Assembly (NCBI RefSeq): GCF_963921235.1
Contig: NC_086097.1
Coordinates: forward strand, 10,912,001-10,976,000
Reading direction: 5' to 3'
Length of the DNA stretch: 64,000 nucleotides
Source of the DNA: Mobula hypostoma
Taxonomy: Eukaryota
The position numbers and the translations under genes were made by a program. Positions 50,801 to 53,800 of this stretch are shown here, piece by piece; position 1 is the stretch's first letter, and each line of letters starts with the position of its first letter. Under the pieces are notes generated by a model. It did not search any database, was not told where the DNA came from, and saw only the letters and a list, made by a program, of their open reading frames with translations.

Positions 50801-53800
50801 TGTCTATTGTAAACCAACGGACTCTCACAGCTACCTGCCACTTGTAAAAATGCTGTCCCCTTCTCTAAATTCCTCATTCTCTGTCACATCTGCTCTTAGG
50901 ATGAGACTTTTCATTATAGAATGAAGGAGATGTCCTCTTCTTCAAAGAAAGGAGCTTCCCTTCCTCCCCCATCAACCTTAACCTCAACTGCATCTCTTCT
51001 ATTTCACACACTTATGCTGTTACCCCATTCTCCCGCCATGCTACAGGGATAGGGTTCCTTTTGTCCTCACCTACCACCCCACCAACCTTCGCGTCTAGCA
51101 TATAATTCTCCGAGACTTCCTCCATCTCCAACTGGATCCCACCACCAAACATATCTTCCCCCCCCCCCCCGCTCCCAACTTTTTGCTTTCTGCAGGGATC
51201 ACTCCCTACGTGATTCCCTTGTCCCATTTGTCCCTCCCCACTGATCTCCCTCCTGGCACTTACCCTTGCAAGTGAAACAAGTGCTTTACCTGCCTCTACG
51301 CAACCTCCTTCACTACCATTCAGGGCCCCAAAGTCTCCTTCCAGGTGAGATAACACTTCACCTGTGAGTCTGTTGGGGTCATATACTGTTTTGGTGCTCC
51401 TGGTGTGGCCTGTTGTATATTGGTGAGACCCAATGTAGATTGGGAGATTGCTTCGCCGAACATCTGCGCTCCATCCACCAGAACAAACAGGATTTCCCAG
51501 TGCCCACCCATTTTAATTCCACTTCCTATTTCGATATGTCCGTCCATGCTCTCCTCCACTGTCGGGATAAGGCCACACTTAGGTTGGAGGAACAACACCT
51601 TGTATTCCGCTTGGGTAGCCTCCAACCTGATAGCATGAACATCGATTTCCCAAACTTCCAGCAACGCCTCCAACACCCCCTTCACCACTTTCCGTCCCTT
51701 TTCCCTCTCTCATATTAGCTCCTTGCTTGCCGATCGCCTCCCTCTGATGCTCCTCTTCCCCCCCCCCCCACTTCCCCACTTTTTCTTCCATGGCCTCTGT
51801 CTCTTTCACCAGTCAACTTCCCAGCTCTTCGCTTCATCCCTTCCCCTCCAAGTTTCACCTGTCACCTAGTGTTTCTGTCTCTGTCTGAATCTCCTCCCAC
51901 CTTTCAAACCTACTCAGTCTTTTTTTCTGTAGTCCTGTCGAAGGGTTTCGGCCTGAAAAACGTTGGCTGTACTTTTTTCCATAGATGCTGCCTAACTTGA
52001 TTTCCTCCAGCATTTTGTGTGTGTTGCTCCATTTATTCACTGCCCTCTAGCTTAAGAAATTCCTCCTCATCTCAGTTCTAAAAGGACGCTCCTCTATTCT
52101 GACGCTGTCCCCTCTAGTCCTAGACTCTCCCACCAAATCAGTTTCCTTGTGCTTCAGCCACCTGGCACTTTGCTGTTTTGAGCAATAGCGAACTGATCTT
52201 ACCATTGTTATGCGTGTTCAGTTGCTGTACATATGATCCCTTTGGCAGACTTGACTTCCCTGCCCCTGCTGACTTCTTGCAACACAGCTGGAGATTGGTT
52301 ATCAAGCTTCCAGGAGAGAAATCATTTGCTTTCCCTTCTGCTATTCAGTAACGTTTCAGCAATGATATTTTTGATCACAGGCCTACACTAGACAAATTTA
52401 GTAGCCAATAAATCTGCCAGCATGGTCAGCATCTGAACTACGATCAAACTCATCTCCCTGGAGCTGGAGCAACAGCACCAACTGAGTTTATCCTGAGTTT
52501 TATTGTTGCTCACTTTTGTTTAATTTTTTGCTGGAAAAGAAGGATACACATTGACATGGACTAGATTGGCCAAAGGGTTTGCTTCTGTGCTGTACTTTGC
52601 CATGACATGCAAATCAAAGATTTTGCAATACACTGAGCTAGCTGTTTTTTGCGCTCTTTAATTTGTATCTATTTCTAAGTTCAAAGTAAATTTCTTATTG
52701 TAATTTAGTTTTTTTTTATTACTATATATTGCAGTGTAGTACTGCCATAAAACAAATTGCATGACATAATGCTAGTGATGTTAAATCTGATTCTGATCCT
52801 CTCTTTAGGCACTTGGGTTCCTTTATGCATCTGGTGTCGGTGTCCATTCAAGTCAAGCTAAGGTATTTGTATATGTTTTTTAAAAAAAAATTAGGCTAAC
52901 TTGTCTTCCTGGTGAATGTGTTCATTTTTGAGAAGGGGATTGCTCCTAATTTTTGCCTTTTACATTTAAAGGCATTAGTGTTTTACACATTTGGAGCTCT
53001 TGGAGGAAACTTGTTGTCACACATGATTTTGGTAAGTAATCCTACATTGTAACAAAGCCTTACAAAGTTAACTATTTTTGGCTTGCTATCCAGTATAATT
53101 GAGTTAATGTGTGCAAAGGTCATTTTTAAAACCTGTAACCTTTAGGTTAGTAGCATAATTGCCTGAAGTTAAATTGCTCTCTATGGATGTTATTTTGCAG
53201 CAAGTTTTGAATATTTAGTTGATGGAAATATAACACATTTCTTAATCGTTCAGGGCTATAGATATTGGGCTGGCATTGGAGTCCCTCAGAGCTGTGAATC
53301 TGCTTTAACTCATTACAAGCTCGTGGCAAATTATGGTAAGCAATCAAATTGGCCTCAAATACTGCGTTGTTATGTACCCCTAGGATTCATATTTTCTGTG
53401 GACTGTCACTTTAAAATGTCGGGAGAACGAGACTGACTTCTCACAGCATTCGCCTTTTGGATTAAAAATATCTCTTATTAATTAACCTGAGCATTGAACT
53501 GAACTATCTTACATTCCATCGTAAGACTGTATCCCTTACCACCTAAGCTTGAAGAGGTTTAGGTTTATATTTCCACACCTATATATGTACAAATAATCTC
53601 TGCTAACCTACTTGATCTATCTGGTTTTATGTTACTTTATTATGTAGTCACTAATAAAATTAGAGAACTGCAAAACCAGACTCCAGGTGTGTTCCATTTC
53701 TGCTGGTTCTTTAAACCCGTTATGGGTTACGTAACAAAATTGGAGGCACCGCTGGGATTCGAACCCAGGATCTCCTGTTTACCAGCTGTTTTTTTTTAAA

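Follow-up and report, generated by a model that had tools for sequence, protein, structure and literature searches.

A tract of 42 nt at positions 53741-53782 of a Mobula hypostoma sequence (64,000 nt from assembly GCF_963921235.1, contig NC_086097.1, positions 10,912,001 to 10,976,000, forward strand; this whole stretch is called the window below) is a copy of a mature, CCA-tailed tRNA-Thr(AGU), located where a retroelement carries its primer-binding site (PBS), just behind the end of a long terminal repeat (LTR). It is probably the PBS of a small Gmr1-like subfamily, lengthened by fossil primer over-extension: a mis-used tRNA-Thr would have been copied past 1-methyladenosine 58 (m1A58), and the product fixed by an aberrant second jump.

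Match to tRNA-Thr

A first-pass annotation of the window had described the tract as the complement of the 3' part of a CCA-tailed tRNA-Thr, lying directly after an LTR-like end. Both descriptions hold. The quoted 42-mer is present letter for letter on the forward strand; the LTR ends at 53736, a 4-nt spacer follows, and the same junction is found at eight other loci. In an alignment to the genome's own tRNA set, positions 35-73 (39 nt) of a tRNA-Thr(AGT) gene located by ARAGORN (L042:1469-1542; L and C numbers denote loci and contigs) are the exact reverse complement of 53744-53782, so that the match is full-length, neither shorter nor imperfect. The trailer of this gene is gctgctg, without CCA; the TGG at 53741-53743 is therefore not gene-encoded, and represents the CCA that a tRNA receives during maturation. 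The 39-nt match and the CCA also agree with the annotation's proposal that reverse transcription of a mature tRNA-Thr(AGU) passed the T arm and reached the anticodon arm. A search of the whole assembly (3.48 Gb in 200 contigs, with the window at C1:10.9 Mb) for the 42-mer with up to three mismatches returned four matches, namely the window (no mismatches), two sister copies (one and two) and the L042 gene (two, both in the TGG), and none for a reversed control. A chance match to tRNA-Thr is excluded.

The first 18 nt match the CCA-tailed 3' end of the same genome's tRNA-Thr(AGT) at 18/18 positions (the whole 42-mer at 42/42), and the 24 nt right behind them are exact to tRNA positions 58-35, i.e. 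beyond A58. The exact match was originally said to stop at wobble position 34. Its exact part does end at position 35, three bases short of the tract end at 53785, but the next three bases, C-A-G, correspond to positions 34-32 when A34 is read as G (with this C counted, the window tract matches the tRNA at 45/45 positions), and two other copies (L040 and L035) reach position 27. The C-A-G is ambiguous: it can be tRNA 34-32 or the first bases of the duplicated LTR segment described below, which read CTG in L032 and L033.

The tract does not qualify as a tRNA gene. ARAGORN calls none in the window; the Rfam tRNA model scores 19.4 bits on the minus strand of 53000-54500, against a gathering score of 29 (mascRNA reaches 21.2 bits, also sub-threshold); and there is no full cloverleaf, positions 1-26 being absent. 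It is not built as a tRNA-derived short interspersed element (SINE) either, with only the 3' part of the tRNA, always joined to an LTR end, and no other genomic copies of the 42-mer. Nor is it ever seen alone, as a stand-alone tailless tRNA retropseudogene would be; a possible 4-bp duplication encloses the whole 500-bp element.

No tRNA-Thr gene combining G34 with this 3' half came up in the whole-genome 42-mer search, and among the pattern matches listed with zero or one mismatch L076 alone is a tRNA-like gene with G34. This locus (L076:57-130, at C2:241.49 Mb) is called as tRNA-Thr(GGT) and differs in acceptor stem and T loop. At L050:1440-1560 (C1:36.2 Mb), a 16-nt inverted repeat is followed by a tRNA-Thr-like 3' part with G34, where ARAGORN calls no gene. 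On C5 (116.30-116.91 Mb), 0.6 Mb of sequence holds at least 17 clustered matches resembling tRNA-Thr(AGT), many of which have ACAGAC rather than ACAGGC at positions 31-26.

Tract-bearing copies

The tract is present in nine of the best 40 scored rows of 74 candidates (the window, L032, L033, L034, L035, L036, L037, L038, and L040), always as LTR end, spacer AAAT (AGAT in L033), and TGG with the rest of the tRNA-Thr complement. The same nine loci recur among 29 matches to a spacer-plus-PBS pattern, against one match in the control; with only the best candidates scored, the census is a lower bound. In the other copies the tract does not run on into a tRNA gene or SINE, a possibility raised in the first-pass annotation.

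Behind the tract, six of the nine (window, L032, L033, L035, L036, and L040) repeat the last ~35 nt of the LTR's unique 5' region (U5; the repeated piece is referred to as U5') and then have a spacer and a PBS resembling that for tRNA-Pro. This second, older PBS is ~85 nt downstream of that in the tract. U5' resembles the true U5 end of L044, L054, and L060 more than it does the U5 of its own element (identity to the L044 type vs. own U5: window, 32/39 vs. 25/34; L032, 37/42 vs. 28/37; L033, 36/41 vs. 31/41). In the remaining three copies, L034, L037, and L038, on three contigs, a common deletion has taken out both U5' and the old PBS. A tree was built from the terminal 300 nt of 31 LTRs. Tract-bearing 5' LTRs are interspersed in it with LTRs that are solo or 3': 24 of the 31 run directly into unrelated flanking sequence, six are tract-bearing 5' LTRs, and one (L045) is a Pro-type 5' LTR.

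Individual tracts (Table 1) have between zero and five substitutions, plus deletions and duplications. The terminal branch of the window LTR is 0.072, vs. a median of 0.036; at this rate ~3 changes would be expected in 45 nt, with a probability of none of about 0.04, and one clean tract among nine copies is not remarkable. The lack of mutation had been taken as a sign of recent capture or of renewal at each cycle. Recent capture is not borne out: nine loci share the tract, paired LTRs are 87-97.5% identical, and the other copies have accumulated the changes just described. The tract has thus been passed on over a long period.

All nine copies have C at position 34. Inosine 34 (I34), at first proposed as the stop for reverse transcription, would then rather have been read through as G. 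Beyond the anticodon, positions 33-27 match at 7/7 in L040 and 6/7 in L035. At position 58, three of the seven copies keeping this base (L033, L037, and L040) have C and the other four T.

The LTR family and its usual primer site

The repeat family of 53434-53736 was surveyed through the best 40 of 2215 candidates. L007 has a full LTR of 1287 nt, and paired LTRs with 1.5-2.1 kb between them are present in four elements: L061 (97.5% identity), L064 (95.0%), L066 (about 90%), and L067 (87%). A polypurine run, GGGGGAGG or similar, precedes the 3' LTR in L061, L064, and L067; target duplications of complete elements are not clean (L066 GGGA/GGGG, L064 CATA/ATAG). The internal part of tract-bearing elements contains a gag-like open reading frame (ORF) only. 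Two weak SCAN matches were found, both below the Pfam cut-off, one in an ORF of L066 (E 0.0024) and one in L065 (E 0.0036); the 399-aa ORF of L066 has no solved relative, the best match (E 0.04) being to an unrelated protein.

The family assignment comes from L065, which has the usual PBS and, between its LTR ends, a colinear order of SCAN-like gag, integrase, reverse transcriptase (RT), and RNase H (minus strand: Integrase_H2C2 plus rve, 7674-6838; RVT_1, 5959-5690; RT_RNaseH, 5246-4860). Gmr1-like elements are said, by Goodwin and Poulter in 2002, to encode integrase ahead of RT. Judging from this one degraded, autonomous-looking copy, the family is probably an old Gmr1-like member of the Ty3/gypsy group. 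A gamma-like endogenous retrovirus, suggested by a likeness of the PBS to the murine leukemia virus type of Pro PBS, was ruled out by the pol order and domain types of L065. The SCAN domain itself derives from Gmr1-like retrotransposons (PMC3424704).

In 12 relatives the LTR end is followed by AAAT and then by a Pro-like PBS in one of two forms. The first, TGGGGGCTC(A/G)TC(C/T)GGGAT, matches genomic tRNA-Pro genes. The second and commoner, TGGGGCCTGCGTC(C/T)G.GAT, differs from the tRNA-Pro complement by three letters and one extra base, and a genome search for a tRNA gene matching this GCCTGCG-type form gave no matches. A degenerate pattern for the Pro-like PBS region has 287 genomic matches and none in the control.

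Directly behind the 18 nt, at position 58, these normal members have one variable base (A in 6, C in 3, T in 2, and G in 1 of the 12), and in 11 of the 12 this is followed by TGAAC, corresponding to tRNA-Pro positions 57-53. The TGAAC is comparable, on a small scale, to the primer over-extension sequence (POS) of lentiviruses (PMC13191261, PMC8599865). Among the 100 matches listed of the 287, the base at 58 co-varies with a second variable base; it could be a mark of misincorporation, or may be a mere subfamily marker.

Probable use and rewriting of the Thr primer site

Several observations point to use of the Thr PBS for priming. First, all four elements with a 3' LTR (L061, L064, L066, and L067) lack the tract there, with ...ACA followed by flanking sequence; last-cycle priming would thus have been at the Thr site rather than the downstream PBS. 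Second, the copies without the old PBS stand at three loci and seem to have spread. Third, position 63, inside the 18 nt, shows one or the other state (A or B) of the genomic tRNA-Thr isodecoders; L036 and L038, which are sister copies (support 99/95), disagree there, each being equal to one genomic isodecoder. Such toggling is what copying of the PBS from the primer predicts.

Renewal of the tract at each replication cycle, as the first-pass annotation suggested, is thus probable for the 18-nt PBS. For the extension it does not seem to be routine. In L061, whose LTRs differ at only 12/483 nt, three tract positions have changed; none of them falls in the 18 nt, and one change is also present in L033. 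This argues that the extension is normally inherited, although that in L035, L037, and L040 looks like a later re-copy, partial and joined with microhomology in L037 and L040.

Similar events with other tRNAs

The same kind of event recurs independently in this genome with other tRNAs. At L049:1537-1615 (C9:204.22 Mb) an LTR end, AAAT, and a T are followed by TGG and the complement of tRNA-Asp(GTC) positions 73-5. Its differences from a tRNA-Asp gene (L074) are of CpG type, and 36 nt matching the internal region of the element in antisense come next. At L077:54-126 (C52:82.72 Mb) an LTR end and AAAT are followed by TGG and the complement of tRNA-Pro(TGG) positions 73-7, with eight mismatches and with a gap and a mismatch exactly at positions 58/59; this locus (C52:82721077) had been considered as a tenth Thr copy until it turned out to be a copy of tRNA-Pro. 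In a different LTR family, L083:45-81 (C1:209.57 Mb) has 36-37 nt complementary to positions 76-41 of the second tRNA-Thr isodecoder (B), while its relative L080 has a plain 18-nt PBS-Thr.

As a control, a plain 18-nt PBS-Thr followed by unrelated sequence is found in seven copies of another family, here called X (L078, L079, L081, L082, L087, L095, and L096), and in one of family Y (L080). The 18 nt at 53741-53758 occur without any difference as the PBS of other LTR families of this genome.

Proposed origin and alternatives

Eukaryotic tRNAs are generally modified at several positions relevant here, including I34, m1A58, 3-methylcytidine 32 (m3C32), and N2,N2-dimethylguanosine 26 (m2,2G26). 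In the proposed scheme, minus-strand synthesis would have started from tRNA-Thr(AGU) on an element with a Pro-like PBS of its own; by string comparison the two sites have 13 of 18 letters in common. Plus-strand strong-stop synthesis would then have gone beyond m1A58 of the mature tRNA still attached, across its T arm and variable loop and into the anticodon arm, reading I34 as G and ending near position 32 (perhaps at m3C32) or before G26 (perhaps at m2,2G26). The resulting over-long 3' end, unable to pair at the PBS, might have been linked, through 2-3 nt of microhomology, with a minus strand whose synthesis had continued for ~35 nt into U5 sequence of a co-packaged relative; this would explain the two U5 types. 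The product would have been LTR - AAAT - tRNA-Thr copy - U5' - spacer - old PBS - leader, and could have spread by way of its 18-nt PBS-Thr. The extra 24-32 nt would thereafter act as an unusually long over-extension sequence, on which strong-stop ends of any length could land, with the 18 nt rewritten from the primer in each cycle and the extension mostly inherited and occasionally re-copied.

A number of points weigh against this reconstruction. The four modifications are assumed for this species, and the founding event is reconstructed from nine decayed copies. The endpoint of the founder is ambiguous between positions 35, 33, 32, and 27: the C-A-G of the window may be of U5' origin, as at this place L032 and L033 have the CTG of U5, and for the ACAGG of L035 and L040 both an ancestral state and later re-copying are conceivable. 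With no tRNA gene found to match the commonest PBS form, it is uncertain which primer is the "normal" one. Recombination at the DNA level, taken up below, also counts here.

The first-pass annotation favored capture of a 3' tRNA half, in which a tRNA-Thr fragment from anticodon-loop cleavage primed or was captured, and was copied to its 5' end. This is unlikely, though of the alternatives it fares best. Seven of nine copies have a clear tRNA match only as far as the anticodon loop (positions 35-32), but a block at a modified base would account for this endpoint equally well. L040 and L035 carry positions 33-27, beyond the loop; L083 ends at position 41; and the Asp and Pro cases reach positions 5-7, so that whole tRNAs were copied there. 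The duplicated U5 end points instead to an over-extended primer copy and aberrant plus-strand transfer.

The tract might also have been acquired by DNA or RNA recombination from another tRNA-Thr-using LTR family that already had a long copy. At least two other families do use PBS-Thr, L083 has a 36-nt version, and the subfamily is chimeric for U5 types. The LTR end and spacer AAAT, however, belong to the window's own family right up to the TGG; no family X or Y sequence flanks the tract, and the leaders of these families after the PBS are unrelated to the sequence behind it. We regard this origin as improbable, and give no more credence to the idea that selection has kept the long PBS as an adaptation, for stronger tRNA-Thr binding or freedom from m1A58, rather than its being only a tolerated accident. 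The LTR type of the subfamily is common in the 31-LTR tree, and normal members likewise match tRNA-Pro beyond the variable base, but L036 and L038 lack 13 nt of the T arm, L038 being nevertheless a complete element, and the extension decays like its flanks.

Truncated tRNA retrocopies of mammals bear CCA. That the tract is a chance neighbor of the LTR, as a tailless retropseudogene made by a long interspersed element (LINE), a tRNA-derived SINE or a tRNA gene, is nonetheless highly improbable: mammalian retrocopies of truncated tRNAs are known (Schmitz, 2004, via PMC3747384) and L050 and L076 are other tRNA-Thr-like pieces with G34, but the junction (LTR end, 4-nt spacer, TGG) is common to nine loci, there is no SINE body or tail, ARAGORN calls no gene, the tract has the orientation required of a PBS, antisense to the tRNA, and the 3' LTRs are without it.

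If over-extension is the correct reading, a further and more tentative suggestion can be made, which we think possible but would not bet on. These insertions may be a germ-line record of how far RT reaches on modified primers (G at I34, a variable or deleted m1A58, ends near 32 and before G26), together with a working switch from a Pro-like to a Thr primer, in which a 45-50-nt landing pad would free strand transfer from the m1A58 stop. Over-extension would then be a natural route to new primer-binding sites and not only a dead end, and old insertions might be mined as a fossil map of tRNA modification.

Comparison with known systems

Like a canonical 18-nt PBS, the tract lies a few nt past the 5' LTR, pairs in sequence with the CCA and adjoining 3' end of a mature tRNA, and is not in the 3' LTR; it is also rewritten from the primer, as far as isodecoder toggling inside the 18 nt indicates. 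It is unlike one in that complementarity continues for 24-32 nt, to 35/32 and in two copies to 27, in that its tRNA (Thr) is not that of the rest of the family (Pro-like), and in having the older PBS downstream. A strong-stop-DNA model for the origin of tRNA-derived SINEs was reportedly put forward by Ohshima and Okada in the 1990s. On its minus strand the locus has the same order, with the tRNA 3' part, CCA, spacer, and U5 complement, as in a tRNA primer attached to minus-strand strong-stop DNA. It shows no sign of SINE mobility, however, and lacks both a LINE tail and, without tRNA positions 1-26, an RNA polymerase III head. Gmr1-like elements resemble L065 in having a gag (putatively SCAN-like in L065), integrase, RT, and RNase H; tract-bearing copies differ from them in having a gag-like ORF only, in 1.5-2.1 kb of internal sequence.

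Plus-strand strong-stop DNA is described as stopping at m1A58, with a second stop at 54, and lentiviral complementarity extends up to 55 (PMC8599865); products extended further normally fail at plus-strand transfer (PMC11251516). The term "primer over-extension sequence" is used in PMC13191261, citing Muthuswami et al. (2002). Lentiviral and spumaviral POS are like the tract in lying directly behind the PBS, matching the tRNA beyond A58, and letting over-extended strong-stop DNA finish its transfer (PMC13191261, PMC8599865). They are ~4 nt long (to 55/54) and conserved genus-wide, whereas the tract has 24-32 nt and is found in nine copies of one subfamily, two of them lacking 13 nt. The tract, in a vertebrate Ty3/gypsy-type element, would apparently be a one-step fixation of an over-extended product and not a result of point co-evolution.

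Insertions of tRNA/PBS sequence at 2-LTR circle junctions, and other aberrant reverse-transcription ends (PMC5618025), similarly arise beside U5 by faulty primer removal or over-copying, but they are dead-end unintegrated molecules of infected cells, where the tract has become part of the germ-line genome and was, in one case, putatively replication-competent. Tailless tRNA retropseudogenes are, like the tract, DNA copies of truncated mature tRNAs; those stand alone and are ascribed to LINEs (PMC3747384), while the tract is fused to an LTR end and inherited in an LTR family.

The prevailing view is that strong-stop synthesis must halt at m1A58 and that over-extended products fail at the second jump (PMC11251516, PMC8599865), a 4-nt over-extension sequence being the only safeguard known (PMC13191261). 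The loci described here would be natural, integrated products of much longer read-through on three different tRNAs, one of which seems to have been rescued, to have switched primer, and to have multiplied. They suggest a concrete and testable route for primer switching in LTR elements, and that marks of tRNA modification (I34, m1A58) may be readable from genomic fossils. A literature search, with most subscription journals outside its range, found no prior account of genomic LTR elements with long tRNA copies in the PBS position; a germ-line-fixed, putatively replication-competent over-extension of 45-50 nt with a primer switch was not found in the literature so covered, and would be new relative to it.

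The window copy and its host gene

Features of the window copy are listed in Table 1, with the tracts of the other copies. The element sits in the intron following exon 53254-53335, in sense orientation to the host gene; the splice donor GT is at 53336, and the element begins 33 nt further on. In the first-pass annotation the gene is taken to be SEL1L, and 3' fragments of tRNA-Thr are suggested as possible pairing partners of the tract in its pre-mRNA. In full copies the piece matching 53368-53439 lies ~0.9-1 kb upstream of the LTR-end piece. As this is the arrangement in most copies, the window LTR has an internal deletion of 0.9 kb, and the unit is a ~1.3-kb LTR (TG...CA); the two LTR matches of the window overlap by 6 nt (53434-53439). 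The inverted LTR start at the right end is one arm of an inverted repeat of 32 nt (91% identity), and is 90-97% identical to the LTR starts of other loci. With its LTR deletion, missing internal region, and inverted LTR start, the window copy is a dead, rearranged 500-bp remnant with no evident present function, and the practical meaning of the finding for the window itself is small.

Table 1. Features of the window copy (positions in the window) and state of the tract in the other eight copies.
Feature	Position	Strand	Evidence or remark
Host exon, putatively Sel1-repeat coding	53254-53335	+	Pfam Sel1, E 0.013, 16.5 bits, below cut-off
Possible 4-bp target-site duplication GCGT, left	53364-53367	.	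Same four bases at 53868-53871
First 72 nt of LTR (TGTTATG...)	53368-53439	+	BLAST vs. 30 loci
Last 303 nt of LTR, ending ...GTAACA	53434-53736	+	Repeat-family match
Spacer AAAT, LTR end to PBS	53737-53740	+	Same spacer in normal family members
Canonical 18-nt PBS, complement of tRNA-Thr(AGU) 76-59 including CCA	53741-53758	+	tRNA comparison
Over-extension, exact complement of tRNA-Thr 58-35	53759-53782	+	tRNA comparison
C-A-G, tRNA 34-32 or start of U5'	53783-53785	+	Ambiguous in window copy
U5', second copy of last ~35 nt of U5	53786-53820	+	Comparison with relatives
Second spacer ATAT and first 15 nt of usual Pro-like PBS (TGGGGCCTGCGTCTG)	53821-53839	+	Cut off by next part
Inverted copy of first ~30 nt of LTR	53839-53867	-	Right end of 500-bp remnant
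GCGT, right copy	53868-53871	.	Matches 53364-53367
L034 tract			One change, position 63, to second-isodecoder state (T stem CTGAG/CTCAG, as in L056 and L059)
L032 tract			Three changes
L033 tract			Five changes; position 33 A>T in common with L032
L035 tract			Second isodecoder at positions 63 and 51; runs to position 27
L036 and L038 tracts			Common 13-nt deletion between two GAT repeats
L037 tract			Fresh partial copy (76-52), joined at ACC, ahead of deleted form
L040 tract			Fresh partial copy (76-53) joined at GAAC to leader; then deleted form to position 27

The LTR has an AATAAA at 53653-53658, in the sense of the host gene and ~320 nt past the coding exon, which could serve as an intronic polyadenylation site.

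A fold-back layout, with an inverted LTR start at the right running exactly to LTR base 1, is found in three tract-bearing copies, the window (53368-53867, ~30 nt inverted), L062:838-3698 (896 nt), and L068:1160-2401 (76 nt), with flanks of GCGT/GCGT in the window and CCAG/CCAT in L062. All three look like reverse-transcription products with the LTR's unique 3' (U3) end on both sides, integrated as units. The arms at 53365-53396 and 53839-53870 were also considered as terminal inverted repeats, belonging to a DNA transposon or miniature inverted-repeat transposable element; this was rejected, the left arm being the LTR start, which in most copies is found ~1 kb ahead of the LTR end. A little further on, a segment at 54095-54130, starting CAGTGGTGCTAGAAAGTTT, may resemble the end of a Tc1-like DNA transposon.

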